In this document: positions 4,596 to 51,287 of the stretch, one piece after another
Numbering within the stretch: the first letter of the stretch is position 1
Layout: each line of letters opens with the position of its first letter
Assembly (NCBI GenBank): GCA_029564515.1
Contig: JAKQPV010000026.1
Coordinates: 158,066-222,065, forward strand
DNA from: Spirochaetota bacterium
Lineage (GTDB): Bacteria > Spirochaetota > UBA4802 > UBA5550
Reading direction: 5' to 3'
Length of the DNA: 64,000 nucleotides
Notes under the pieces: generated by a model
Told to the model about the DNA's origin: nothing
The model's input: only the letters and a program-made list of their open reading frames with translations
Databases searched by the model: none
Made by a program: the position numbers and the translations under genes

Positions 4596-5750
4596 ATGGA
4601 ACCGATCACTGCAATAAGCGGATACTGCATGCTGGCTGCCGCCGTCATCTCCTGCTACAAGGCGGTGGAGCAGATGCTGGTCCGGCGGTCCGAGGATCAC
4701 AACCGCATGCTCTTCGTTCTCCTCCTCTGCACCGGCTACCTCCTGGGAGCGCTGGGCGTTTTCAACATCGGCGCGCTTCCCACCCTGCCGGACGCCGTCT
4801 TTATCGCGGGGCTTATACTCTTCATCGCGGGCGCCTACCTGGCGGGGCCTGCGGCATACCTGTATTACCAGTCGCTCATCAGCCCTGTCAGCGGCAGGGC
4901 CGTACTGCACGCTGCGCCCTCGGCTGCGGCAGCCTTCTTCGCGGTCCCGTATCTCCTTACCCGGACACCGGCGTACCGCGATGCGATGCGGGCGGATTTC
5001 TTCCGCGCGCCGCATGAAGCGGCCCTGTACGCGATCATGGCGGTTGCCATGGCGGTCATCACCGGATATACCGTCACAATCCTGGTGATCGAGATCTCGG
5101 TCAGGAACAGCGGGAAGATCAGGCGCGCGGTCATGTCGCTGATCGTAGTGACGGCCGGCCTCCTCCTCTCACCCCTGGCTCTCTTCGCCGGTTTTGTAAT
5201 GCAGGTGCCCGCGCTGTCGCTTTCCGGCGGCCTGCTCTTCGCGCTGAACATGCTCCTTTTTATAATCGCGCATGTGCGGTACCAGGACTTCTTCCAGTAC
5301 CTCGGCAGCGAGGTCCGCCTGGCCCGCCAGCGACGGTCCGTTCTCAAGGGGCTGGACATACCCCGCCTTCGCGCGCGGCTGGCCGCCCTTATGGAGGAAG
5401 AGCACTATTACCGTAATTTCGACATCAGTATGGCCTCGACCGCCGAAAAGCTGTCGGTCACGCCCCACCAGCTCTCCTGCTTCCTGAACAGGAAGATGCA
5501 GATCGATTTCAGCAACTTCATCAACCGCTACCGCGTTGACGAGGCGAAGAAGCTCCTCGGGGAAGACCCGGACAGGACCGTACTCACGATCTGCTACCAT
5601 GTCGGGTTCGGCTCGAAAACCTCGTTTAACGTGACCTTCAAGGAATATACCGGCATGACGCCGACCCGGTACCGCGACCTTCACAGCGCAGGCACCGGCC
5701 CCGTGCGCCAGCACCCGCGGCCGGGCACGGCGCGCCGCGGCCCCTGCTGA
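4596..5750 (+). CDS. Polytopic membrane protein fused to an AraC/XylS HTH regulator
   Basis: About 6-7 hydrophobic helices are followed by an AraC HTH (LSVTPHQLSCFLNRK, GFGSKTSFNVTFKEYTGMTPTRYRD). Confidence 0.75.
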   Translation: MEPITAISGYCMLAAAVISCYKAVEQMLVRRSEDHNRMLFVLLLCTGYLLGALGVFNIGALPTLPDAVFIAGLILFIAGAYLAGPAAYLYYQSLISPVSGRAVLHAAPSAAAAFFAVPYLLTRTPAYRDAMRADFFRAPHEAALYAIMAVAMAVITGYTVTILVIEISVRNSGKIRRAVMSLIVVTAGLLLSPLALFAGFVMQVPALSLSGGLLFALNMLLFIIAHVRYQDFFQYLGSEVRLARQRRSVLKGLDIPRLRARLAALMEEEHYYRNFDISMASTAEKLSVTPHQLSCFLNRKMQIDFSNFINRYRVDEAKKLLGEDPDRTVLTICYHVGFGSKTSFNVTFKEYTGMTPTRYRDLHSAGTGPVRQHPRPGTARRGPC

Positions 5751-6934: not shown

Positions 6935-6969
6935 TTCTTAGTAAATAAATAAGCCTGTTCATTTGGGCT

Positions 6970-7683
6970 ATAGGCTCTGACCCCTCTATTAAAAATACAC
7001 CGCCAATCTCTTCAGGTAGGCCTCTTCATAGAACAGGAACTTTTTTACACACTCCTCGAAGGTATTACCGAGTTTATAAAAGTATTCATGCAGGGTAATT
7101 TTTACAGGCGCCACATGGTTTTTGTCCAGATAACAGTTTATGAACCCGATATCGTTCTCACGCGGATTCCTCGACAGGCCCTTTCTCACAGGATTGTACC
7201 CGATATACCATAACAGCCATAATAGATATTCCTCCGGATTATCCGCCTCCTCGATAATGCTGGATCCGAAGCGTTCATTCCAGAATGAGCCCGTGGTACC
7301 CATGGCCCTGTTGTATTTTTCCGCGATTCTGGCCTTGATATACTGCATTATCCGGGAGATTGTCTGTTTTTCCAGGTTGGTTTTAATGACCAGGTGAATG
7401 TGATTGGCGACAATCTCCGCGGCGACGAGCTCAAAATCATATTTCTCCTGGCACTCCCTGACTGCTTCAGTGAAATATTTTTTCCCGTATTTACCGAGCA
7501 GGAGATTCCTTTTCCCATGACACCTGCTGTATGCGTGGTGAGTAAGTCCCTGGGCTATTTTGCGTAACGGTCGTGGCATATGCTCCTCCTGATGTCTAAT
7601 ACGAATGGGAAGCGGCGGAATTGAAAAAAAACGGGGGTATCCGGGTCAGAGCATGGTATTTTTAAATCGGGGTCAGAGCCTAT
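6970..7683 (-). mobile_element. RAYT unit: a Y1 transposase gene bracketed by inverted REP sequences, in a locally AT-rich patch
   Basis: ATAGGCTCTGACCCC (6970-6984) is the exact reverse complement of GGGGTCAGAGCCTAT (7669-7683). An extra half-copy, GGGTCAGAGC, lies at 7643-7652. Confidence 0.7.
6989..7579 (-). CDS. REP-associated tyrosine transposase (IS200/IS605-family Y1 HUH transposase, RAYT type)
   Basis: HUH motif (ANHIHLVIKT) and a catalytic-Tyr helix (WYIGYNPVRKGL). The 196-aa size is typical of RAYTs. Confidence 0.8.
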   Translation of the reverse strand: MPRPLRKIAQGLTHHAYSRCHGKRNLLLGKYGKKYFTEAVRECQEKYDFELVAAEIVANHIHLVIKTNLEKQTISRIMQYIKARIAEKYNRAMGTTGSFWNERFGSSIIEEADNPEEYLLWLLWYIGYNPVRKGLSRNPRENDIGFINCYLDKNHVAPVKITLHEYFYKLGNTFEECVKKFLFYEEAYLKRLAVYF

Positions 7684-7754
7684 TCCCTATTCTAACACCA
7701 TTTTCAAAAACCTTATACAATATGAAGTTCCCCTGCCTGATATTAATTATGTGA

Positions 7755-7850: not shown

Positions 7851-9257
7851 ATGAGAGACGTATACGTTTTATCCGCGCATACCATCAAGTTCGGCAGGTA
7901 CCTGGAAAAAAGCGTCAAGGACCTTGCAGCGGAAACGGTCATACCCTGCCTGAAACAGGCCGGCCTGGAGAAAAAAGACCTGCAAGCGCTCTGGTTTGCC
8001 AATTCCGGGTGGGGATACGGGAAAGGACAGGATTCCATACGGGCACAGGTGGCCCTGCGGCCCCTGGGAATAGAAGCCATTCCCATGACCAACGTGGAAA
8101 ACGCCTGCGCCGGCGGCTCGACCGCTTTTCACCACGCGTGGCTGGGCGTGGCAAGCGGGCTGTATGACGTCACCATGGCGGTCGGGGCTGAAAAAATCAA
8201 TGATCCGAACAAAATGAAAGTCTTTGCCGGTTTTCTCGGCGGATTGGATATAGAGAACATTGCCGAAATAATTGCAAACATATCCGTCTACGGCATGAAT
8301 GATGAAGATAGAAAGAACATGGATACGCACATAAAAAAATACGCACAGAAAAAAGAGCCGGGGAACAGCGGCAAGAAAAGGAAAAAGCCTACCACAAAAG
8401 AAAAAATGAACGAGTACTGGGATATGTTCAAAGTGTACATCAGGCTCAGGGACTGCGTCGGCGCCGAGACCGTGAAGGACATGCGCAAGCTCTTCTCCGG
8501 CGATCACTCACCGTTCATGGACGTGTACGGATACGCGGCGCGCCAGCACATGAGGAAATACGGCAGCACGCCCGAGCAGCTCGCGGTCATAGCGTCGAAA
8601 AACCATTATCATTCGTCCCTTAACCCGAACGCGCAATACACCTTCACGGTCACGCCCGAGCAGGTGCTGGCTGACCGGATGGTTACCTGGCCCCTGACAC
8701 GGGGCATGTGCGCTCCCATCGGCGACGGAGCGGCCTCGGCAATTCTCTGCGACCTCGGCACCGTGAAGCGGCTCGGCCTCATGTCGCAGGCGGTGAAGAT
8801 CCGGGCCTCCGTGCTTGGCTCCGGCAGGGAACGGGCCTTCGAGGACACCGATATCGGCGAGCGGCTCAGTAAAATCGCATACGAGAAGGCGGGCCTGGGC
8901 CCGTCCGACATGCACCTGGCGGAGGTCCACGACGCGACGGCGTACGGCGAGCTCCACCAGGCCGAGGCCCTGGGCTTCTGCAGGGAGGGGGACGGCGGGA
9001 TCCTGGCCCAGAGCGGCGCCACGAAGATAGGTGGGAAGATCCCGATCAACCCGAGCGGCGGGCTGGAGTCGCGGGGGCACCCTATTGGCGCGTCCGGTCT
9101 TGCGCAGATCCACGAGCTGGTGACGCAGCTCCGCGGCGCGGCTGGTCCCCGCCAGGTGCAGGGAGCGAAGATCGCCATCGCGGAAAACGGCGGCGGCGCA
9201 CTGGGACAGGAAGAGGCGGCCATGTGCATCCACATACTGGAAGCGCCGGCCAAATAA
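7851..9257 (+). CDS. SCPx/Ltp-type thiolase-family protein (acetyl-CoA C-acyltransferase-like)
   Basis: Nucleophile Cys context (NVENACAGGSTAF), GHPIGASGLAQ, and C-terminal ENGGG instead of CxG, as in SCPx-type thiolases. It carries a Lys-rich insertion. Confidence 0.85.
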   Translation: MRDVYVLSAHTIKFGRYLEKSVKDLAAETVIPCLKQAGLEKKDLQALWFANSGWGYGKGQDSIRAQVALRPLGIEAIPMTNVENACAGGSTAFHHAWLGVASGLYDVTMAVGAEKINDPNKMKVFAGFLGGLDIENIAEIIANISVYGMNDEDRKNMDTHIKKYAQKKEPGNSGKKRKKPTTKEKMNEYWDMFKVYIRLRDCVGAETVKDMRKLFSGDHSPFMDVYGYAARQHMRKYGSTPEQLAVIASKNHYHSSLNPNAQYTFTVTPEQVLADRMVTWPLTRGMCAPIGDGAASAILCDLGTVKRLGLMSQAVKIRASVLGSGRERAFEDTDIGERLSKIAYEKAGLGPSDMHLAEVHDATAYGELHQAEALGFCREGDGGILAQSGATKIGGKIPINPSGGLESRGHPIGASGLAQIHELVTQLRGAAGPRQVQGAKIAIAENGGGALGQEEAAMCIHILEAPAK

Positions 9258-9440: not shown

Positions 9441-11162
9441 TTGACAATGTACCTGCTGGCAAACATAAAGAACGCGTTAAAGATGTCCCGCGCCGCACTC
9501 CTCTTTTTTCGCGACGAGATAAGCCGCGGCACCTTGAAGCAGAATTTCAAGAGCCTGAAGAAAAGCAAGGAGATCGCGGAAGACATGTCCTGGGCCGAGC
9601 TCGCCGAGGAAAAGGCACGCAAATACGGGGACCGGGTGTTCCTGATGTTCGAGGACAAAAAGTTCACGTTCCGCCAGATGGACGAAAACGCGAACCGCAT
9701 CGGCAACTACCTGCTCTCCCTGGGCGGAGGCCGCGGCAAGGGGGTCGCCATCATCATGGGCAACTGTCCTCAGTACCTGGATATCTACATCGGGTCGCAG
9801 AAAATCGGCATGTATTCCATTCCCGTGAACACGTCCCTGCGCGGCGACAGCCTTCTCTACATATTAAACCACAGCGACTCGGAATTCGTATTCATTGACG
9901 AGGAATTCCTTGACGTGTACAACAAGATCGCGGACAGGGTCGAGAAGATAAAGCACGTGATCGTGAACCGCCCGGCGGCCGCAGCCTCGAAGCTTCCCGC
10001 GGGCATGAAGGACCTGTCCGGGGCGTACAGCCATTCCGCGATAAAGCCCGAGGGATCTGCCCCCGGCAGGGACGACATCTGCTTCATCCTGTACACCTCC
10101 GGCACGACCGGCCTTCCCAAGGGTGTCATGTACCGGTACGGCAAGACCACGGTAAAGCTTCTCTCCCTCCCGGCCTACATGATGTACAAAAAATCCGACA
10201 TCCTCTATACCTGCCTGCCGCTCTTCCACGGCAACGCGCTGTGGCTCACGACAACGGTCGCCCTGCACCGGGGCGCGAAGGTCGTGCTCACGAAGAAATT
10301 CTCGGCCAGCAGGTTCTGGGACGATATCCGCAAGTACAACGTGACCGCGTTCAACACGCTCGGGGCAATGATACCTATTTTAATGAAGCAGCCGGAAAGG
10401 GCGACCGACCGCGACAACCGGGTGCGGTTCACCCTCTCCGCTGCGTGCCCGGCCGACGAATGGCCGAAATTCGAGAAGCGCTTCGGCATTAAAATCTACG
10501 AGGGGTACGGGGCGGTTGACGGCGGCGGAAAGAGCATCATGAACCTGGGCAACGCGCCGGTCGGCTCCATCGGGAAACCGAGCCTGGGCGTGGTCTACCG
10601 GCTGGTCGACAATAACGGCAATGACGTCCCGGATGGGACGCCGGGCGAGCTCATTTTCGAATCGAAGGGCAAAAAAAAGTCGGTGGAATACTTCAAGAAC
10701 GACAAGGCATCCGGCGACAAGCTCCGGAACGGCTGGATCTATACCGGCGACCTGGTCCGGCGCGACGCGAAAGGCTACCTCTACTTCGTGGGCCGCAACG
10801 CCGAGTTCATGCGGATCAAGGGCGAGAACGTGTCCGCCTACGAGGTGGAGCACACGATCCAGAAGCACCCATCGGTGGTGGAAGCGGCAGTATACGCCGT
10901 ACCGTCAGAGCTGGCGGAAGACGAGATCATGGCCTCCATCTCCCTGGTAGAGGGACATGCGCTCAAGGAAGAGGACCTGGTCGATTTTCTGAAAGAAGAC
11001 TTGCCTAAATTCGCGGTGCCGCGGTATATTCGGATCGTGAAGGAGTTCCCGAAAACCGAGACACAGCGCATAATCAAGAAGGAGCTCGAAAAAATAGGCA
11101 TCGTTCACGGCACGTTCGACTCGCAGAAGAACGAGCGCGTACTGAAAGAAAAAATTTCGTAA
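9441..11162 (+). CDS. AMP-dependent acyl-CoA synthetase/ligase
   Basis: AMP-binding motifs ILYTSGTTGLPKGVMY, YEGYGAVDGG and YTGDLVRRDAKGYLYFVGR. The exact start is uncertain. Confidence 0.85.
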   Translation: MTMYLLANIKNALKMSRAALLFFRDEISRGTLKQNFKSLKKSKEIAEDMSWAELAEEKARKYGDRVFLMFEDKKFTFRQMDENANRIGNYLLSLGGGRGKGVAIIMGNCPQYLDIYIGSQKIGMYSIPVNTSLRGDSLLYILNHSDSEFVFIDEEFLDVYNKIADRVEKIKHVIVNRPAAAASKLPAGMKDLSGAYSHSAIKPEGSAPGRDDICFILYTSGTTGLPKGVMYRYGKTTVKLLSLPAYMMYKKSDILYTCLPLFHGNALWLTTTVALHRGAKVVLTKKFSASRFWDDIRKYNVTAFNTLGAMIPILMKQPERATDRDNRVRFTLSAACPADEWPKFEKRFGIKIYEGYGAVDGGGKSIMNLGNAPVGSIGKPSLGVVYRLVDNNGNDVPDGTPGELIFESKGKKKSVEYFKNDKASGDKLRNGWIYTGDLVRRDAKGYLYFVGRNAEFMRIKGENVSAYEVEHTIQKHPSVVEAAVYAVPSELAEDEIMASISLVEGHALKEEDLVDFLKEDLPKFAVPRYIRIVKEFPKTETQRIIKKELEKIGIVHGTFDSQKNERVLKEKIS

Positions 11163-11265: not shown

Positions 11266-12780
11266 ATGAAACCATTGAGGATCGGCAGGAAAGAAAAGCT
11301 TCATTTACTCGAACAGGGCCCGAAAATATGGGAAGCCTTTAACGGTCTTGAGTGCCAGCACCGGCTGGCGAAGAGTACGCATAAAGACGTCAAGAAAGCG
11401 ATTGCCATAGCCCGAAAATTCAACAACGAAGTCATCCGGCCCATCTACCTCGAAATGGACCTCAAGTGCATGGAAGACCATGATTACCTGGCCTGGGATT
11501 TCCTCAAAAAAGCCGGCGAATGGGGCCTCTTCTCACTGTTCATCCCGAAGATCTTCGGCGGCAGCGGCCTGAACTTCCTGGGCATGTATCCCTTCATTGA
11601 AGAGATTGCCTCGGTCTGCTCCGGCCTGGGGCATATCATCTTCGTCCACTACCTCGGGCTCGCCACGCTCTTTCCTTCATTCAACTCGAAGATACTCAAC
11701 AAGGTCCTACGCGACGTGCCGAAAAGCGAGAAGAAAGGCGAGCCGCACCTCCTCGACCTGGTCATCACCGAGCCCGACGCCGGCACCGACGTGCAGGAGC
11801 CGCTCCTGCTTGACAGGGGCCGGATCGGGACCATCGCCAAAAAGGTCGATGGCGGATATGTTATCAATGGAAGAAAGATATTCATATCGAACGGCCACTT
11901 CTCCTACTGGCATATCGTCATGTGCAGCGAGGACAAGAAGAACCCGGCCGAGACCTTCATCCAGTGCGTTATCCCGAACGGGAGCAAGGGGTTCAGCTTC
12001 GGCACGCGCGAGAAGAAGATGGGGCACCTGGCCTCCACCGCGAGCGAGCTCCTGTTCGAGGACTGTTTCGTTCCGAACGACTGGATGAGCATCGTGTGCC
12101 AGAGCCCCGACATGATAAACTCGAAAAAGGGGATCCGGTGGACCGTCCACTCGATGATCGATTACGTGGTTTCCAGCTCCCGCGCCGGTGTCGGCGCGAT
12201 CGGTACCGGCATCGCGCGGGGCGCGTATGAGGCGGCGATGTCGTACGCGCGGAAGAAGAACGTGGGCGGCGAGCTACTCGTCAACCAGCAGTGGGCCCAG
12301 ATCATCCTCACGGACATGTACCGCAACGTGAACATGGGACGGGCGATTTACATGGAAAGCGCATATACCGACATGCTCCAGGGCCTTTTCAAGCTCCTGG
12401 CGAAAAAGCCGATCCACTATTTTCTCACGCTGATGCCGAAGTGGTATTTCTCGCTGATATCGCCCCTCCTGAGCCTGAAGCTCGTTACCCGCCTGTTCAG
12501 GAAGTATTACTACGACTGGTACACGGACGAGGAGCGGGACGCCTCGTCCGGGTGGGCCTCGATCGCCAAGTACACCTGCACGGACATCGGCGTGGCCAAC
12601 GCGAACCTCGCGCTCGACCTGATGGGCGCGGACGGTCTCCGGCACGATCACGGCGCGGAAAAATGCTACCGGGACGTCAAGCTGACGCAGATATACGAGA
12701 GCACGAACCAGGTCAACCAGATGAACCTTTTCTGCTGCCTTGTCGGCAATCACATGCCGGAAGTCGAGTTCTTCAAATAA
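11266..12780 (+). CDS. Acyl-CoA dehydrogenase (long form with extra segments)
   Basis: ACAD fold. The catalytic-base motif is present (RDVKLTQIYESTNQVNQ). TEPDAGTD and the FISNG-type middle domain are also present. Confidence 0.85.
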   Translation: MKPLRIGRKEKLHLLEQGPKIWEAFNGLECQHRLAKSTHKDVKKAIAIARKFNNEVIRPIYLEMDLKCMEDHDYLAWDFLKKAGEWGLFSLFIPKIFGGSGLNFLGMYPFIEEIASVCSGLGHIIFVHYLGLATLFPSFNSKILNKVLRDVPKSEKKGEPHLLDLVITEPDAGTDVQEPLLLDRGRIGTIAKKVDGGYVINGRKIFISNGHFSYWHIVMCSEDKKNPAETFIQCVIPNGSKGFSFGTREKKMGHLASTASELLFEDCFVPNDWMSIVCQSPDMINSKKGIRWTVHSMIDYVVSSSRAGVGAIGTGIARGAYEAAMSYARKKNVGGELLVNQQWAQIILTDMYRNVNMGRAIYMESAYTDMLQGLFKLLAKKPIHYFLTLMPKWYFSLISPLLSLKLVTRLFRKYYYDWYTDEERDASSGWASIAKYTCTDIGVANANLALDLMGADGLRHDHGAEKCYRDVKLTQIYESTNQVNQMNLFCCLVGNHMPEVEFFK

Positions 12781-19195: not shown

Positions 19196-19380
19196 AGTGC
19201 ATAGTGCATAGTGCATAGTGTATAGTGAATAGTGAATAGTTAATGTAACTGTTCCGCTCTTCCAGAGCGGAACAGTTATTTAACAGGTTGATCGTCCATC
19301 GTTAGTTATTTTTTTTATCCGCAGAAGCGGATAAAAAAAATAACCATAACTATTCACTATTCACTTTTAACTATTCACTG
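19196..19380. repeat. Heptamer-armed nested palindromic element, copy A (two inner hairpins)
   Basis: The left arm is (GTGCATA)x3-GTGTATA-(GTGAATA)x2-GTTAAT. The hairpins span 19247-19277 and 19306-19343. The right arm is ATAACTATTCACTATTCACTTTTAACTATTCACTG. Confidence 0.9.
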
Positions 19381-19413: not shown

Positions 19414-20280
19414 ATGCAGATATACCGGTTAGAGGATAAATGCAGTAATTGCATGCTGTGCGTGCGTGAATGCGTATCAGGCATATGGCGCAACGTCAAC
19501 GGCGTACCCACGCCCGTGGAGATCGACCTGTGCAACCGGTGCAGCCACTGCATAGCGGTGTGCCCGAAAAACGCCATCGTCCACGAGGGTCTCGACGCGA
19601 AGCAGGCACTCCCCGTGAAGAGTCTGAAAATCGACCCGGAGGCATACCGCGGCATAGTGCTCTCCCGCCGGAGCGTCCGCCAGTATAAGGACCGGGCCGT
19701 CCCGCGCGAGCTGATCGGGCGGATACTCGACCTTGCGCGGTATTCTCCCACCGCGAGCAACGACCAGAACGTCGGCTTCATCACGGTGACCGACCGCGCG
19801 CTGATAGGGGAGATCGCGGGCGGAATATTCGGGTTCGCGGACCGGCTCGCGGCCAGGCTCGAGACCGGCCCGGGTCGCCTCTTCATGAAGGTGACGGGAC
19901 TGGCAAAGAACCGCTACATCCGGCGCATGGATTACGCCCGCGAGATGGTCGCCGGGGGGAGGGACATTATCCTTCACAACGCCCCGGTTATGATCCTGGT
20001 GCACGGGCCCGCGAAAGGGAGCTTCGTCTGCGACAACTGCAGCATCGCCGCCACGAACATCATCAACTACGCGCATGCGCTCGGCCTGGGCACCTGCTAC
20101 ATCGGCTTTATGACCCTGGCCCTGCGCTTCAGCAAAAAACTCGGCAAGAAGCTGAAAGTCCCGGAAGGAAGAAAGGTGTACGCGAGCCTGGTAATGGGAT
20201 ACCCGGCTTATTCGCACCCGAATACTGTGTCGAGGAAGAAGGCGGATATACTATGGATAGAAAAATCAGTGAATAGTTGA
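19414..20280 (+). CDS. Fusion protein: N-terminal 2x[4Fe-4S] ferredoxin domain + nitroreductase domain
   Basis: CSNCMLCVRECV and CNRCSHCIAVCP, followed by RRSVRQYKDRAVP and PTASNDQN nitroreductase motifs. Confidence 0.8.
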   Translation: MQIYRLEDKCSNCMLCVRECVSGIWRNVNGVPTPVEIDLCNRCSHCIAVCPKNAIVHEGLDAKQALPVKSLKIDPEAYRGIVLSRRSVRQYKDRAVPRELIGRILDLARYSPTASNDQNVGFITVTDRALIGEIAGGIFGFADRLAARLETGPGRLFMKVTGLAKNRYIRRMDYAREMVAGGRDIILHNAPVMILVHGPAKGSFVCDNCSIAATNIINYAHALGLGTCYIGFMTLALRFSKKLGKKLKVPEGRKVYASLVMGYPAYSHPNTVSRKKADILWIEKSVNS

Positions 20281-20375
20281 TAGTTAATAGTGAATAGTTA
20301 ATGTAAATTTTATTCGCTCCTATGGAGCGAATAAAATTATCCATAACTGTTCACTATACACTATTCACTGTTCAC
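20268..20375. repeat. Heptamer-armed palindromic element, copy B (one inner hairpin, 20306-20338)
   Basis: AGTGAATAGTTGATAGTTAATAGTGAATAGTTAAT ... aattttattcgctcc-tat-ggagcgaataaaatt ... ATAACTGTTCACTATACACTATTCACTGTTCAC. Confidence 0.9.
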
Positions 20376-20393
20376 TAATTCAAGGAGGTCCTC

Positions 20394-21877: not shown

Positions 21878-21985
21878 AGTGAATAGTTAATAGTTAACAG
21901 TGAATAGTGAATGTAAATTTTATTCGCTCCAGTGGAGCGAATAAAATTATCCATAACTGTTCACTATACACTATTCACTGTACAC
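21878..21985. repeat. Heptamer-armed palindromic element, copy C (one inner hairpin, 21916-21948)
   Basis: The core and right arm are identical to copy B over about 80 bp except for the hairpin loop (agt vs tat). Confidence 0.9.
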
Positions 21986-21998
21986 TTAATAGGAATCC

Positions 21999-23922: not shown

Positions 23923-24210
23923 TGCGGCACCTCTCGGGGGAACAAACGCCCTGCTATGAAAATTAGAATAGTATCGATGAAATCTTCCGCCGGCGGGGGG
24001 ATGTGTCAATCCTTTTTCAGGAGGGGGAATCCAGATAGTCAAGATGGGGAGAATATGACGCTTGCAAATTATTATCAGCATATCTCCGCAGTTCTTCGGT
24101 GGCAGGACCATCTTTATTACACTGGATTTGATCCTTTCTATATAGTTCATTGCAGCCTCATGATTGATCTCAGGTGACAATTATATTGTCATTGGGGGGG
24201 GGGGTGCATG

Positions 24211-25110
24211 CTAAGGGAGGAAGTTATTAAGATCAATACAGTAATCCACTGATGCTGTAATACCAAAAATATGTTCAAAGCTCATTGATGCTTCTTCTAC
24301 TTTCTTGAGTTTATAAAGCATTTGATACCTGAATCCCAAGGACAAATCAATTGAAACAGCGGAAATAAAATAATCAATGCTGCAACTTGCATTCATGCCG
24401 ATCTTGTTAACATTACTTTGTGTTATATTTGATGGAATATATGTAATTATGCTTGAAGATTCCGTTTTTCCAATATAGTACTGCTCGGTTACCTGATCTG
24501 AAAAGCAAAAAAGGAACGCTGGGTCAATATTAAAAGTCAGCATGTTATTTATTATTGGTATAGAAAAGCCAATTCCAATAAGGGGGATGTATTCATTGGT
24601 TGTATCTGTTATTACTTTCTTCCCCGCCATAAAAAAATCCGAATAGCTAGTAAAGATTCTCAAAATATGATTGCTGGTATGGTTATAAGTAAAACCCATG
24701 GACAGGTTTAAAATTTTATTAAATGAATATCGTATTTTTGTATCACATTCGTATCTTTCCACAACTCCCATCTTATCCATAATTACAATATTACCGAAAT
24801 ATTGATTTTTTTTTGTGGCTGAAAATTGTCCAAATAAAAACATAGACATAATGCTGATATTTTCAGGAAGATTAATGCATATATTGGGACCATACATGAA
24901 ATTTTTTTTTATATATGTTCTATTGATAATATCCGGAGGATAGAAAATGTCACTTGTTTCACCAATATACATAAGTTGGGATTCCAGCACTGGAGATGGA
25001 AGAATCCAGAATGCATACCATGAATTAAAACCCAGTCGGATACTTGTGGCTTCTGAGTATACTGGCGTTAAAATTATTACTAATAATAATACATATTGAA
25101 TAAATTTCAT
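24211..25110 (-). CDS. Secreted hypothetical protein, possibly an outer-membrane beta-barrel
   Basis: Signal peptide (MKFIQYVLLLVIILTPVYSEA) and alternating hydrophobic/aromatic strands. Codon usage is very AT-rich. I recognise no family. Confidence 0.4.
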   Translation of the reverse strand: MKFIQYVLLLVIILTPVYSEATSIRLGFNSWYAFWILPSPVLESQLMYIGETSDIFYPPDIINRTYIKKNFMYGPNICINLPENISIMSMFLFGQFSATKKNQYFGNIVIMDKMGVVERYECDTKIRYSFNKILNLSMGFTYNHTSNHILRIFTSYSDFFMAGKKVITDTTNEYIPLIGIGFSIPIINNMLTFNIDPAFLFCFSDQVTEQYYIGKTESSSIITYIPSNITQSNVNKIGMNASCSIDYFISAVSIDLSLGFRYQMLYKLKKVEEASMSFEHIFGITASVDYCIDLNNFLP

Positions 25111-25223
25111 ATTCTTGATATTTCCACCATATATTGCTGAATCACTCAGTCTTTTGGTATGTCCCCATGGGTCAATAATTTTCGGAGAGTGCAGTTATCA
25201 CTGAATTGATTATAGAAACAATA

Positions 25224-27260
25224 TCAAGGGGTTGCATTTAGTGCACCATATGCATCAAGCATTTTGCTCGTGGATATCTTGCCATCGAGATTCGAATTGA
25301 TTTTTCCGCCATTAAGTATCATATTCCTAATTTGCGAATAGGTATATGTTGGATTGGCTGCCAAGACAAGACCTGCAACACCGGTTACATACGGTGCCGC
25401 CATTGATGTACCTTCAAGAAAAAGGCAGGCAGTTGCATTATTATAATGATACCATCGGTTAATAACAAAAGGACATATTTCAATACCATAATAATTTAAT
25501 GTTTCATTTGATACAAATCTAAATCCTATACTAGTATTATGAGACGAAATCGGTGTTAAATCAAATACAGGTGAATCTACGGTCTCTCCCAATGTACCGA
25601 GGTTATTCATAGGCTTATTCCCATCAGTATCATATACGACGTTTACGTAATCCGCCTCATCTTGAATATAACATGCATATTTAAAATATAACGTTACCAG
25701 AGCAGGCTCATACGCATTCAGGTCGAACGTTCTGTATGCATAACTATCCATGTTATTCAAGTAGTAGTATTCAGAAAAAACCAGTGGGTTGTTCAATACA
25801 CCCATGATTCCAGTGATGCCACTACTTGAATAATTAACATCAATATATTTATAATTCCATCCAGCATCTCTCTTCCATGATGAAAAATATTCTATCGCAT
25901 AAACCTTCTGCGCGGGATAGGTACTAAGTATATTAACTCCCGGTGCGGCAATATCAACCGATGTCACTCCATAATTTGTCCAATGTGGCAGTGTGCCATT
26001 CTGGTTAATTGCAGCGACTGATATTATATTGTCGAGATCATAACTGGCAGGGTATTCAGGTTGAGTATCATTACTTGATCCGTTGTTCCCTGCTGCGGCA
26101 ATAAAAAGTACGCCATTATTCCTTGCTTCATTAATTGCATCATATATCGCCTCATCATATATATAATCGCCCCAGCTGGCATTAATTATTTTTGCACCGT
26201 TTTCAATTGCGAACTCTATTCCAGAAACGATATTATCTGTCGTACCGTTCCCACTCGCATCAAACACGCGAACTGCCATTATGTTTGATTTCCAGCATAC
26301 ACCGCTAATTCTATTCCCATCATTGCCGCTTGCACCGATGATGCCAGCTACATGAGTCCCGTGACCATTCACATCTTTCGGGTCTTTTGTGTTATCCACA
26401 AAATCATAACCATGAATGCAATCGCCAAGAGAATCTCCAGATCCTGTGACACAGGCCGTACCGTCCCACATGTTGTTTTTTAAATCGCTGTGGTTGTAAT
26501 TCACGCCAGTATCAAGAACTGCGATTATAACACTGCTGCAATCGTCAACCATGTCCCATGCTTTGCACGCGTTTATATCATATCCCACTGTTCCGGTATC
26601 GGTATTCACCGTTTGACCTGAATTATATAATCCCCATTGGTTATTGAATTCATAATCATTTGGCGTGGTGGTTGTTGTATGATATATATAGTTTGGCTGT
26701 GCATATTTAACATATTGATTTTGGTTTAACTTTTGAATGGTTTTTTCCAATATCATATTTGAGGAAAGACTTATTTTTTGCAGCAATGACGATTTATTGT
26801 TACCACCAATACTCTTCAACGATTTTCCAAACCCCATTGCCTGAATTACATTGTTTGCTTGCCATATGTTAACACCGGCACGAAATTTTATTAGTACTTC
26901 ATTCTTTTTATATTTAGTTGCTTGTCCCTCACCATATGAACCAATACTCTGTGAAAAAGTATATGCATCAAGTTGACGAGAGTCTGTCTTTTTTGAACCT
27001 GGTGGTTTAGATGCGATCATACGGGAGCCAGTAAAATCTTTCATGCCGCAACTACAAGCAGAACCATAATATTCATCATCCGGTTGTATGATTTCAGGAT
27101 TTCTACCAGAATACAAAAACATACTCGACGTGAAAACATTCTCGATATCACTAATTTTTTTTGATAAATCAATATTATTGCATGATTGTAAAAACAATAA
27201 AATAATAATTAAAAAATTACGAATAGTTTTTTGTTCATTAAATTTATATTTATTAAACAT
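25224..27260 (-). CDS. Subtilisin-like S8 serine peptidase lipoprotein with an I9-like propeptide and a large insertion
   Basis: Lipobox LFLQSC. Catalytic triad contexts are AVLDTGVNYNH, NGHGTHVAGIIGA and EGTSMAAPYVTGVAGL. Confidence 0.9.
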   Translation of the reverse strand: MFNKYKFNEQKTIRNFLIIILLFLQSCNNIDLSKKISDIENVFTSSMFLYSGRNPEIIQPDDEYYGSACSCGMKDFTGSRMIASKPPGSKKTDSRQLDAYTFSQSIGSYGEGQATKYKKNEVLIKFRAGVNIWQANNVIQAMGFGKSLKSIGGNNKSSLLQKISLSSNMILEKTIQKLNQNQYVKYAQPNYIYHTTTTTPNDYEFNNQWGLYNSGQTVNTDTGTVGYDINACKAWDMVDDCSSVIIAVLDTGVNYNHSDLKNNMWDGTACVTGSGDSLGDCIHGYDFVDNTKDPKDVNGHGTHVAGIIGASGNDGNRISGVCWKSNIMAVRVFDASGNGTTDNIVSGIEFAIENGAKIINASWGDYIYDEAIYDAINEARNNGVLFIAAAGNNGSSNDTQPEYPASYDLDNIISVAAINQNGTLPHWTNYGVTSVDIAAPGVNILSTYPAQKVYAIEYFSSWKRDAGWNYKYIDVNYSSSGITGIMGVLNNPLVFSEYYYLNNMDSYAYRTFDLNAYEPALVTLYFKYACYIQDEADYVNVVYDTDGNKPMNNLGTLGETVDSPVFDLTPISSHNTSIGFRFVSNETLNYYGIEICPFVINRWYHYNNATACLFLEGTSMAAPYVTGVAGLVLAANPTYTYSQIRNMILNGGKINSNLDGKISTSKMLDAYGALNATP

Positions 27261-27521
27261 ATATTTTACTCTGTGATTAACATATTAAACTGTGTTATTA
27301 ACATGGCATTAATAATCCAAGGAATTAACAAATAAAATAAGGCCGATCAATTGTTGTCATAATGTTGATTTATTGATCAGCCTTTTATTCATAACATTCA
27401 TATTTGTTTTGAAAAATATCTAATCACTCATCATAAATGGTTCTCAATCCTCTTTTAAGTTATAAGATAAAATTATCTATTACATATCTAAATATATGCA
27501 TCTATAGAGATTCATCCCTTA

Positions 27522-28382
27522 TTAAAATACTTCAGTCCATGCTTGTCCGTCATCAGGGGTCGGGTAGTAAGTAATAATCCAACCATTAAAATATATTTTT
27601 GGTTGGCTCCAGACTCCAAAATGCATGTTGTATGATTTTAGCTCTACATTAACTGCGGCATTTATCATCGGATTGAATCCAGCATAAGAACCATTATGAC
27701 TCCAGGTTATAAGATCCCCATCATCATCATATCCTCTAAACTCAACAATCATGTTTGGTGACCATGGGTCTTCAAATGAAAAAGTTAACACATATTGAGA
27801 TGCACCAATAAGCCACCAGTAGCCATTATAATAGTCAACTCCGGCCCACCATCGTTTGTCATACTCACGTGCAGTTGCATTTCCACCTGTCGTAAAAATA
27901 TGAGATAATACACCTGTATCAAGTGTACTATTGATACTATATGAACAATTATTTTCAAATAAAGCTGTTATTTCTTTCGGTATATCATTTGAGACAATAG
28001 ACGAATTAGATTTATCATTCATAAAACTATCAAGATATTTTTGCCAATTACTCCCTAAAGCTTTCTTCAATGCAATCTGAAGACTATATTCCATATTTTC
28101 ATAAGTATATGGCGGAATAGGAACAATAAACTTCTTTCCTTTAAAAATTAAATTGTCACCTTCATATGTTATTACTTTCGCCATTCCTTTAGATATCAAT
28201 TGTTGAGCAACATTCTCAATTCCACCTATTATTATTGATTGAGATTTTGCACTCACAACAGCTGATTCCGATGATTCACTACTAGCAAGAGCTAATAATG
28301 ATTTTCCATTTTTTGATAGGTCATAACAGCTTACGCAAAATGATCCAAGTAAACAAATAATTAGCACAAAATATTTCTTCAT
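27522..28382 (-). CDS. Hypothetical lipoprotein (Trp/Tyr-rich C-terminal domain)
   Basis: Lipobox LLGSFCVSC. AT-rich codon usage matches the neighbouring S8 gene. I recognise no family. Confidence 0.5.
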   Translation of the reverse strand: MKKYFVLIICLLGSFCVSCYDLSKNGKSLLALASSESSESAVVSAKSQSIIIGGIENVAQQLISKGMAKVITYEGDNLIFKGKKFIVPIPPYTYENMEYSLQIALKKALGSNWQKYLDSFMNDKSNSSIVSNDIPKEITALFENNCSYSINSTLDTGVLSHIFTTGGNATAREYDKRWWAGVDYYNGYWWLIGASQYVLTFSFEDPWSPNMIVEFRGYDDDGDLITWSHNGSYAGFNPMINAAVNVELKSYNMHFGVWSQPKIYFNGWIITYYPTPDDGQAWTEVF

Positions 28383-38348: not shown

Positions 38349-38381
38349 AAAAAAACCGCCCCTGTCCAGGGGCGGTTTTTT
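38349..38381 (-). terminator. Rho-independent (bidirectional) terminator downstream of the acyl-CoA synthetase gene
   Basis: aaaaaaccgcccc-tgtcc-aggggcggtttttt. Confidence 0.8.
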
Positions 38382-40930: not shown

Positions 40931-41050
40931 TAGTGAATAGTTATGGATGATTTTCAATGGAAGTTTAACCTTGTAAATAATTTTATCCGCTCTGCAAGAG
41001 CGGATAAAATTAACCACAACTTTTCACTATTCACTATTAACTATTCACTG
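40931..41050. repeat. Heptamer-armed palindromic element, copy D (one inner hairpin, 40979-41011)
   Basis: TAGTGAATAGTTATGGAT ... aattttatccgctc-tgcaa-gagcggataaaatt ... TTTTCACTATTCACTATTAACTATTCACTG. Confidence 0.9.
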
Positions 41051-41893
41051 TTTTTTATTATCAATATTCTCCGGCTCCATGTTGTGTATTATACTCAGGA
41101 CCGTATTGAGTTTCGAGTAATGCCCCCCGGTCACCGGGCCCATGGCGCCCTCGCCTCCCAGGAGCCTCTTGCTGATCTCGCGGGGCGGCAGCCCCTTGTC
41201 GTGAAGATCGAGCACCAGCGCGGAGAGGTCCTCCATGAAGCGGACTTTCTCCCGCAGCGCATCCCTGCCGTTGTCCACCGCCCCGAGCAGGCTGCAGAAT
41301 ATGGTCCCGAAATCGAGCCCGGCAAGCATCCCGAGCGTCTCCACGATGAGGGAATAGTTCTCGTCAGCGCGGAGGTACTTGAAGCCCCTGCCGCAAAAGA
41401 GGTCCCCGGTGAAGAGCCAGCCCTCCCGGGGCTCGTGCAGGCAGACATGGTGCGGCGTGTGCCCGGGTGACGGTATGACCTTCAGTGCGTACGGGCCGGC
41501 CTGCACCACTCCCGGCAGCGGGTCCGCGTCCGAGGGCGCGGGCCATCCCCACACCACGCGCTGGTAGGGCCTAAGCTTCAGGAGACGCGGGTTCTTCAGA
41601 ACCGGCAGCGCCCCGGCCGGCGCAAGCACGCGCGCGCCAAAATGGCCCTGGAGCAGGTCGTTGCCTCCGATATGGTCCTCATGCTGGTGAGTGTTGATCA
41701 CCGTACGTATAATCCTCCCTTCCAGAACCGATGCCAGCTCCCTTCGCACGCAGGGCGCCCCGGTATCGATCATGGTGTCGCCCACCAGGAAGGCATGCAC
41801 CGGGTAGAGGACGAAGCGGCCGATGCTCCGGCCCATCCTGATAACGGTTACGGGACCATGCTCGGATGTTTTGATCATGCCGATACTCTCCAC
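41045..41893 (-). CDS. MBL-fold metallo-hydrolase paralog
   Basis: VINTHQHEDHIGG and SPGHTPHH. The start is GTG at 41893 or ATG (MIKTSEH) at 41878. The stop TGA lies inside repeat copy D. Confidence 0.8.
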   Translation of the reverse strand: MESIGMIKTSEHGPVTVIRMGRSIGRFVLYPVHAFLVGDTMIDTGAPCVRRELASVLEGRIIRTVINTHQHEDHIGGNDLLQGHFGARVLAPAGALPVLKNPRLLKLRPYQRVVWGWPAPSDADPLPGVVQAGPYALKVIPSPGHTPHHVCLHEPREGWLFTGDLFCGRGFKYLRADENYSLIVETLGMLAGLDFGTIFCSLLGAVDNGRDALREKVRFMEDLSALVLDLHDKGLPPREISKRLLGGEGAMGPVTGGHYSKLNTVLSIIHNMEPENIDNKKQ

Positions 41894-41894
41894 T

Positions 41895-42076
41895 AGCGAA
41901 TAGTTAATAGTTAATAGTGTATAGTGAATAGTTATGGATGATTTTTAATCTGCTCGATGAGCAGATTAAAAATCAATTTAAAATGGAAGTTTATCCTTGT
42001 AAATAATTTTATCCGCTCTGTAAGAGCGGATAAAATTAACCACCACTATTCACTATACACTATTAACTATTCACTG
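41895..42076. repeat. Heptamer-armed palindromic element, copy E (two inner hairpins, 41940-41974 and 42005-42037)
   Basis: AGCGAATAGTTAATAGTTAATAGTGTATAGTGAATAGTTATGGAT ... CACTATTCACTATACACTATTAACTATTCACTG. Confidence 0.9.
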
Positions 42077-42406
42077 AATTTTCCTCATTTCCCAAACAGT
42101 GCCTTTCGGGTCCGGGCAGTGAATCCTGAAGATCCTCCTGTTATCGCTGTTCCATGACGGAAACCCGAATGCGGCGCGCCACACGTACAGGTCGAGCACG
42201 TGCAGGAGGGCACGGCACACTCCTTCAGGCTTCTGGTACGGGTTTTCGTACACGAACACGTCTCCAAGATTGTGCCTGCACTCCTCGTTCTTTTCCACCA
42301 TCCTGATCTCCAGCCTGCTGACGCGTTTCCAGAACTCAAGGTAGTCCCTGTGGTCCCTGATTGCGTCCAGGTCAAGGTTCAGGTCGATGCCCGTATCGTG
42401 GTCCAT
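42071..42406 (-). CDS. Small Cys-containing protein resembling the TIGR04076 family
   Basis: The pattern GDVFVYENPYQKPEGVCRALLHVL...FGFPSW...IHCPDPKGTVWEMRK resembles TIGR04076 from memory. The stop TGA lies inside repeat copy E. Confidence 0.5.
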   Translation of the reverse strand: MDHDTGIDLNLDLDAIRDHRDYLEFWKRVSRLEIRMVEKNEECRHNLGDVFVYENPYQKPEGVCRALLHVLDLYVWRAAFGFPSWNSDNRRIFRIHCPDPKGTVWEMRKIQ

Positions 42407-51106: not shown

Positions 51107-51287
51107 AGTAGTGCATAGTTAATAACGAATAGTGAATAGTTATTGTAAATATTTTCCGCTCTTCCAGAGCGGAAAATATTTTATTATGATGTTAATCGTT
51201 TATTCTCAAGCAATTTTCCATCCGCTCAGGTAGAGCGGATGGAAAATTATCCGCAACTATTCACTAATCACTATTCACTATTAACTG
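51107..51287. repeat. Heptamer-armed palindromic element, copy F (two inner hairpins, 51148-51180 and 51212-51248)
   Basis: AGTAGTGCATAGTTAATAACGAATAGTGAATAGTTATTGTAAAT ... CGCAACTATTCACTAATCACTATTCACTATTAACTG. Confidence 0.9.

Follow-up and report, generated by a model that had tools for sequence, protein, structure and literature searches.

Palindromic repeats between genes are usually dismissed as selfish DNA in decay or taken for REPs peculiar to one species. Elements of the REP/BIME/REPIN type are extragenic, multi-copy palindromes that occupy operon gaps, often form inverted doublets with a hairpin of about 100 nt, are inherited vertically, become homogenised within a genome and show Watson-Crick covariation with structure-specific conservation. 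ERIC/IRU, Correia (NEMIS) and RUP/BOX elements are non-coding imperfect palindromes of 100-180 bp, which lie in transcribed intergenic regions in either orientation, vary in presence and absence among relatives and can supply signals to their neighbours. Both sets of properties resemble those of six non-coding palindromic elements of 109-185 nt, all of them intergenic, that were found in a 64-kb stretch of DNA from an uncultured Spirochaetota bacterium (the window, meaning the whole of the stretch that was analysed). The six differ from REP, BIME and REPIN sequences in having arms made of heptamer arrays instead of a single REP, in lacking a GTAG-type head and in that the RAYT of the window has other REPs. 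They differ from ERIC/IRU, Correia (NEMIS) and RUP/BOX in that the sequences are unrelated and no target-site duplication was seen at the elements; nor are tandem-repeat arms known as a feature of those families.

Tandem heptamers have precedents of a different kind. The STRR of cyanobacteria are intergenic heptamer arrays, and the omega protein of plasmid pSM19035 binds 7-bp heptads of the form WATCACW, the ATCAC core of which does not vary, in arrays that may be direct or inverted. The operators and centromeres read by omega resemble the present arms in consisting of contiguous 7-bp units, direct and inverted, that could be read cooperatively by a protein. The arrays described here, however, are 50-120 bp apart, chromosomal, multi-copy within operons and not adjacent to a ribbon-helix-helix gene, and as the variable heptamer positions match the 'TC' inside the omega-read core, the likeness is superficial. 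A parallel in architecture exists in the class 1-3 sites of Geobacter metallireducens, paired opposite-strand arrays of tandem 7-9-mers with variable spacing (Aklujkar et al. 2009, PMC2700814), for which the authors proposed a role as IHF/HU or global regulator sites and at which an IS was sometimes inserted at a fixed distance (PMC2700814). In class 3 each arm contains five heptamers (ATTCTGA/CTCCTGA), the distance between the arms is about 70-110 bp, and the TGA-bearing strand is outward (PMC2700814, supplement S9). Like the present family it comprises inverted pairs of about five heptamers (here 5 + 4 plus a junction unit) that are intergenic and multi-copy, but the match is one of architecture only, since class 3 has another heptamer, an outward stop strand, no conserved GC-cored hairpin described and a host from another phylum. 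Intergenic TAACTGA arrays have also been described from Beggiatoaceae, Cyanobacteria and Bacteroidetes, with stops in all frames and overlap with upstream stop codons (MacGregor 2015, PMC4679880). These again are tandem 7-mers with three-frame stops on one strand, upstream-stop overlap and an occurrence in several phyla; unlike the arms described here, they are direct repeats of another heptamer aimed at the downstream start codon and are not mirrored around hairpins.

Given the Geobacter class 3 and TAACTGA precedents, the kind of element is already known; what is new is the present family, together with the cores of its hairpins and the extent to which it is conserved. A sequence-only reading of the window had not recognised a described REP, BIME or MITE family in the elements. 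That view stands as far as sequence goes, no match having been found in Rfam, among phages or plasmid features or in published sequences, but it has to be qualified for the architecture. No element reached an Rfam gathering threshold, hits at E <= 1 were generic-hairpin noise far below threshold, and the known RNA families were rejected on these grounds. A literature search for the heptamer strings returned nothing relevant, and annotated phages gave no match to the heptamer arrays.

The six elements (copies A to F) and the gaps in which they lie are as follows, the strand being that of the neighbouring genes and the elements themselves carrying no strand assignment.

19196-19380, no strand: copy A, with seven left heptamers (AGTGCAT three times, AGTGTAT, AGTGAAT twice, AGTTAAT), TGTAACT, two hairpins, AATAACCATAACT and four right heptamers plus G; gap (+) between a SpoIIE-type (PP2C-type) phosphatase gene and a Fer4-nitroreductase gene.
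19246-19278, no strand: hairpin 1 of copy A, a perfect 15-bp stem, TAACTGTTCCGCTCT / AGAGCGGAACAGTTA, with loop TCC.
19305-19344, no strand: hairpin 2 of copy A, a perfect 18-bp stem, GTTATTTTTTTTATCCGC / GCGGATAAAAAAAATAAC, with loop AGAA.
20268-20376, no strand: copy B, with five left heptamers, TGTAAAT, one hairpin (20306-20338), TTATCCATAACT and four right heptamers; the upstream nitroreductase gene (+) has its TAG stop (20278-20280) supplied by the first heptamers, and on the 3' side the RBS AAGGAGG lies 7 nt beyond the element.
21878-21986, no strand: copy C, with the layout of copy B; gap (+) between an SRPBCC gene and an MBL-fold gene.
40931-41050, no strand: copy D, with a single left heptamer and AGTTATGGATGA, which is a right-type junction in mirror image, then TTGTAAAT as an internal junction, a hairpin (40978-41012), TTAACCACAACT and four right heptamers plus G; the terminal heptamer supplies the TGA stop (41045-41047) of the MBL gene at 41045-41878 (-).
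41895-42076, no strand: copy E, with five left heptamers, hairpin 1 (41939-41975, perfect 17-bp stem), hairpin 2 (42004-42038, perfect 16-bp stem) and four right heptamers plus G; a small conserved gene 42071-42406 (-) has its TGA stop from the terminal heptamer.
51107-51287, no strand: copy F, with about five left heptamers, TGTAAAT, hairpin 1 (51147-51181), a spacer, hairpin 2 (51212-51248), TTATCCGCAACT and four right heptamers; gap (-) between an FtsX-type permease gene and a LolA-like gene.

In the shared design, tandem heptamers (AGTKWAT / ATWMACT), about five to an arm, make up two arms in mirror arrangement with asymmetric inner junctions, between which stand one or two perfect hairpins of 15-18 bp with a CCGCTC/GAGCGG core. 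With arms of about 35 nt in mirror orientation and no coding capacity, the elements have the small size and terminal inverted repeats of MITEs, and their GC content is 28-35% (about 30%) compared with 56% for the window. The claim of the sequence-only reading that six elements share one architecture was borne out by array and hairpin counts far above chance. Matches to AGTGAATAGT with at most one mismatch numbered 43 in the window, against 1.6 expected, and the sole match outside the six elements was at 41349; CCGCTC-N3-9-GAGCGG was matched five times against 0.09 expected, each time inside an element. The nine internal hairpins had stems of 15-18 nt with 100% complementarity. Folding of whole elements gave z = -8.7 to -16 relative to dinucleotide shuffles, with energies of -24 to -30 kcal/mol as DNA and, for copy E, -90 kcal/mol as RNA. 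A covariance model built from the single-hairpin copies of the family recovered the six copies, and no others, from the 64 kb.

The ancestral unit is about 109 nt long and consists of five left heptamers, TGTAAAT, a hairpin (AT-rich stem, CCGCTC(T/C) core, loop of 3-5 nt), TTA(T/A)CCxxAACT and four right heptamers. Copies A and F have an extra (second) hairpin and a spacer, and AGTGCAT is expanded in copy A. Copy E had been taken as one unit and is in fact two units placed tail-to-tail; copy D is a deletion form of E that lacks four left heptamers and the first hairpin. Some earlier details need amending accordingly: a left arm of 3-7 heptamers does not describe copy D, which has only one full left heptamer, an exact CGCTC core is missing from the second hairpin of A and the first hairpin of E, and the coordinates hold for A, D, E and F, whereas B and C, with right arms of four units, end at 20376 and 21986. 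Copies B and C are 94.5% identical. Given the close likeness of B to C and of D to E, only about four copies are independent.

Alignment of the nine hairpin units on their loops, a small sample of related copies, showed that 90.8% of stem cells were paired (Watson-Crick or G-U), compared with 37-51% when the 3' partners were slid by 1-3 columns. Eleven of the 17 pairs were altered on both sides and none on one side only, in agreement with the earlier observation that stem positions vary in a compensated way. Between the site-B orthologues described below, two stem positions had changed from T-A to C-G, again on both sides. G-U pairs were absent from the inner 15 pairs, and missing wobble pairs fit a DNA palindrome, not a typical RNA helix. 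It had further been proposed that selection acts on the hairpin rather than on the sequence, and this holds for the core but not for the arms, which are sequence-constrained. Among 71 heptamer units, positions 1, 2, 3 and 6 were at least 99% invariant, position 4 was G (49) or T (22) and nothing else, position 5 was mainly A, and position 7 was T, at times C. When five single-hairpin copies were read in the direction of transcription, Watson-Crick pairs were formed at 211 of the 265 symmetric arm positions; the mismatches on the sense strand (G-U 10, A-C 5, other 39) fell for the most part on positions 4-5 of the heptamers and on the asymmetric junctions, were uncompensated and were partly conserved across species. 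The arms thus behave as arrays of a sequence motif kept mirror-wise on both sides, and the core behaves as a structure.

Syntenic loci of relatives, a comparison that the sequence-only reading had proposed, were reached via homologues of the flanking genes. Family members were present at sites B and C of L217 (protein identity to the window 72-85%) and at site C of L190 (70-79%), which is close to L217. In L213 (78-90%), sites A, B and C had none, B and C being filled by a different palindromic repeat with decayed heptamer remnants alongside; L219 (76-93%) likewise had none and carried a third inverted-repeat element at D and E. Site F was a clean 57-nt gap in L221 (78%) and was taken up by unrelated GC-rich repeats in L222 (72%), and the more distant L214-L216 and L218 (Abh 73-75%) had no copies. 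The elements therefore show the presence (window, L217, L190) and absence (L213, L219, L221, L222) at orthologous sites that is typical of MITEs. A metagenome scan with a family-specific pattern gave mostly chance matches, the real members belonging only to the window organism and L190.

The other repeats seen at these loci have designs of their own. The one in L213 is a palindrome of about 115 nt (CTGTCATTCCGGCCGAAGCG...GGGAATGACAG; 9860-9975, 11526-11628 and 5509-5571) that occupies the orthologous sites B and C. The element in L219 is MITE-like, with inverted ends CTCTCGCAGAGACGCTGAGGCGCAGAG, and lies at 8455-8740 and 9625-9770 in the orthologous sites E and D. At 12170-12340 of L214, a 2.7-Mb relative, a perfect 28-bp hairpin stands between GGGATAAGGGGACGT repeats, an armed-hairpin design with another repeat unit.

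In coding DNA the identity between the window and L217 is 74-78%; it is 53-63% at third codon positions and 43-55% at fourfold-degenerate sites, the latter being essentially saturated. Element B, in contrast, is 89.7% identical (104/116), without gaps and with an unchanged heptamer count, and element C is 87.2% identical when flipped and 73% unflipped. At site B, the first heptamer supplies the in-frame end of the nitroreductase gene (AGT GAA TAG) in both species, an upstream 3-nt indel keeps the frame, and the right edge is the same to the base. At site C the edges agree within 2 nt, and the whole element, including the order of its heptamer variants, is inverted in L217 and L190. The matching edges and the in-frame stop indicate single ancestral insertions that were maintained, one of which flipped in place. 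The copies were inherited vertically after one entry into intercistronic gaps of an ancestor, a copy can invert in place, and copies barely change while adjacent synonymous sites saturate; they are also lost, or decay once another repeat lands in them. Element sequences did not cluster by site (B and C of the window 94.5%, orthologous pairs 87-89%, B and C of L217 82%), and identity was 87-90% for close and distant species pairs alike, suggesting a plateau of constraint with some within-genome homogenisation on top. Vertical persistence combined with such homogenisation is also what marks REP/BIME/REPIN families.

The inversion at site C bears on a further claim, namely that all six copies lie in the same asymmetric orientation. 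As a rule this fails, since an orthologue with the same edges is flipped whole in two related species, and orientation is therefore not tied to the genes. The covariance model supported the + call for B and C (25 bits) and for D and E (12-14 bits), while A and F were marginal (2-5 bits). GC skew showed no change of sign across the window, and with about four independent copies on one replichore the orientation pattern within it is not significant.

Motif-like arms, a structure-like core and tolerance of inversion favour recognition at the level of DNA. Our preferred reading, which is put forward tentatively, is that the elements form a lineage-specific, non-coding and non-autonomous foldback repeat of the REPIN/BIME/MITE kind, kept by DNA-level recognition and having passive effects on operon mRNAs. 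A mirrored motif that is uncompensated at its variable positions, strict Watson-Crick covariation in the core and indifference to orientation together suggest that a protein recognises the double-stranded or extruded DNA. Such a protein would be sequence- and structure-specific, perhaps a nucleoid protein, by analogy with REP/BIME, or an enzyme of the RAYT/transposase type, and it might also copy or homogenise the elements, as the 94.5% likeness of B and C would suggest. The insertion of IS elements at a fixed distance from the similar paired arrays of G. metallireducens lends this reading a precedent. Copies inside operons would be co-transcribed as long stem-loops, the inward strand, by closing three frames, would bring upstream ORFs to an end, and mRNA fate would probably be influenced as a side effect.

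A cognate enzyme was not found in the window, where the only HUH transposase has other REPs. On either side of this RAYT-like gene for a Y1 transposase (6989-7579, -) stand REP copies of its own, GGGGTCAGAGCCTAT (region 6960-7690), which are unrelated to the CCGCTC hairpins, as had been noted earlier, and the elements were accordingly rejected as REPs of the resident RAYT; for this RAYT, the REPIN hallmark of the same REP flanking the transposase gene is lacking. The sample behind the preferred reading comprises nine non-independent copies from three species. Purely selfish repeats are not usually conserved so far above the neutral rate at fixed sites, and a host function could account for this equally well; the tight fit of intercistronic copies between stop codon and RBS may also suit a role at the RNA level. 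Set against the usual view of such repeats, this family is kept at fixed operon positions, unaltered in length, heptamer count and hairpin despite synonymous saturation, and yet can be flipped. It offers a clean natural test case of what preserves such repeats, be it an enzyme of their own, a protein of the host or a function in RNA.

A role in RNA is kept alive by the strictly intercistronic placement. All nine copies lie in short gaps between co-directional genes. Within the window, copies A-C are flanked by + genes (PP2C-type phosphatase, Fer4-nitroreductase, alpha/beta hydrolase, SRPBCC and MBL-fold) and copies D-F by - genes (small conserved ORFs, MBL-fold and DUF3124; FtsX permease and LolA-like), and the elements occupy the gaps almost wholly. 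The upstream stop codon falls inside the first heptamers (B, D and E) or 4-13 nt ahead of the element (the rest), three of the six upstream genes using the element's own stop, and the downstream RBS lies 7-30 nt past the element. For 17 of 18 arm entries, a reading inward from the edge meets stop codons in each of the three frames within 26 nt; read outward, many frames remain open. These features, together with very stable RNA folds, would suit a co-transcribed cis element, a stem-loop of 20-50 bp between cistrons comparable to REP, ERIC or Correia, that might act as a barrier to 3'-exonucleases, as an RNase III site, or by coupling or uncoupling the translation of neighbouring cistrons, with the heptamer arms excluding ribosomes by closing three frames. 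The occurrence of other palindromic repeats in the same gaps of relatives, as though any stem-loop sufficed, would fit such a role as well. We nevertheless consider it possible but doubtful, because the core stems contain no G-U pairs, the arms show no wobble bias on the sense strand, and the flip at site C turns former G-U into C-A on that strand. Furthermore, both arms keep the motif as read in DNA while pairing at positions 4-5 is not maintained, the stop-bearing strand of Geobacter class 3 faces outward, some of the cross-phylum copies described below lie between divergent or convergent genes, and site F is empty in the 78% relative L221. The opposite polarity in Geobacter, and the finding that stops are kept no better in upstream than in downstream arms, also weaken the notion of an all-frame stop pad as a general design reason.

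It is unlikely, although several features would suit it, that the elements are regulatory or architectural DNA sites of the host, with the 5+5 heptads forming cooperative arrays for an omega-like ribbon-helix-helix protein or an IHF/HU-type protein and the core acting as a supercoil-sensitive cruciform. The motif is invariant and mirrored on both arms, GC-cored palindromes stand amid AT-rich sequence, orientation is irrelevant, and the five units per arm recur in Geobacter class 3, which its authors read as global regulator sites. The varying positions, however, fall inside the core read by omega, no regulator gene accompanies the elements here or, among the matches listed, in other phyla, and the copies lie inside operons and not at promoters, carry no promoter-like signal and are dispensed with by close relatives. 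Among other sites considered, a HutP-like UAG-N4 RNA motif, the DnaA box, ParB/parS, the ARG box and NarL sites had 5-6 bases in common with the heptamers and failed in arrangement.

That the family is an unconstrained selfish MITE, its interspecies similarity being due to recent independent insertions into hotspot gaps, is improbable. In related species the same gaps do draw three repeat families that are unrelated to one another, the element sequences are not grouped by site, and site C has opposite orientations between species. Independent insertion is nonetheless difficult to reconcile with edges at B and C that agree to 0-2 nt and with a first heptamer that terminates the upstream gene in an unchanged frame, and the equal identity of close and distant pairs (87-90%) is that of a plateau and not of a recent burst. 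No consistent direct repeat that could represent a target-site duplication was seen beside any of the nine copies, the empty and filled flanks being unalignable, and no autonomous parent element with the same ends was seen in the window or in about 20 kb from the relatives.

Imperfect palindromes placed in one direction right after assorted small enzyme genes could also suggest integron attC sites of a cassette array, or intrinsic terminators, but both are very improbable, as the elements end in AGTGAAT ... ATTCACT(G) without RYYYAAC/GTTRRRY core sites, the fixed orientation to the ORF is broken by the flip at site C, and no hairpin followed by a U-tract occurs within them. On either strand the T-run lies on the 5' side of the hairpins and the A-run on the 3' side, so that they are not terminator-shaped, and a scan found no terminator-like or promoter-like site inside the elements. 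A canonical bidirectional terminator-shaped hairpin (AAAAAACCGCCCCTG / CAGGGGCGGTTTTTT) is present at 38350-38381, downstream of an AMP-binding gene; ordinary terminators thus exist in the window and look unlike the elements.

Heptamer arms were also found in other lineages. A degenerate three-heptamer scan (AGTKHATAGTKHATAGTKHAT) of reference genomes, a permissive pattern, matched at least 120 loci, and among the matches listed at least 16 had a forward array followed by a reverse array on a loose screen. On a stricter three-heptamer screen of the same matches, at least 11 loci were forward-then-reverse and none was in divergent order. Convergent arrays were distributed, among the matches listed, over at least eight groups (Bacillota, Acidobacteriota, Gamma- and Alphaproteobacteria, Bacteroidota, Cyanobacteria, Planctomycetota and Atribacterota). 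Each lineage has a centre of its own, and some lineages have small families, with two opposite-facing copies in L113, two copies in L046 and a common centre in Prevotella/Segatella among the matches listed. The family covariance model aligned full-length to cross-phylum loci, down to E ~1e-12. Their neighbours are unrelated housekeeping genes, some copies lie between divergent or convergent genes, no partner gene travelled with the arrays among the cross-phylum loci listed, and the centres had no Rfam match.

That the same heptamer arms turn up in many phyla, and pairs of five heptamers in Geobacter too, suggests that a general building principle is involved. It seems rather unlikely, but not negligibly so, that convergent (AGTKWAT)n ... 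(ATWMACT)n arrays around lineage-specific centres constitute a cross-phylum functional module. If they did, they would represent a widespread and unrecognised class of foldback element, read by a conserved factor, or an orientation-independent insulator of translation or transcription between genes.

Individual loci illustrate the range of these arrays. In Prevotella/Segatella (L071 2938-3026 and 7880-7971; L099 1127-1191; L106 352-447 and 994-1058), AGTTTAT/AGTTAAT arms surround GCGGCTACGCCGTxTAGCAAGAxTGC. In a Planctomycetaceae MAG (L113 3125-3270 and 4879-4986), two copies with heptamer arms and a common centre face opposite ways at a distance of 1.7 kb, and the units of one copy are GC-richer (AGTGGAG/CTCCACT). 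In Petroclostridium sp. X23 (L023 6338-6541), an array pair has glmM on one side and the glmS ribozyme on the other. The sole match among annotated plasmids was on lp38 of Borreliella burgdorferi B31 (NC_001856.1, ~10288-10372; L220 1501-1585), a direct (AGTTAAT)x12 array without an inverted partner, which is unannotated and lies about 150 nt downstream of partition/replication genes.

Two further observations concern the window itself. The nearest homologues of some of its genes carry the labels Syntrophaceae or Smithella. Positions 24001-28000 form a sharp low-GC island (35% compared with 56% for the window), probably horizontally acquired, which contains a subtilase gene (25224-27260, -) and two ORFs without a Pfam match (24211-25110 and 27522-28382).
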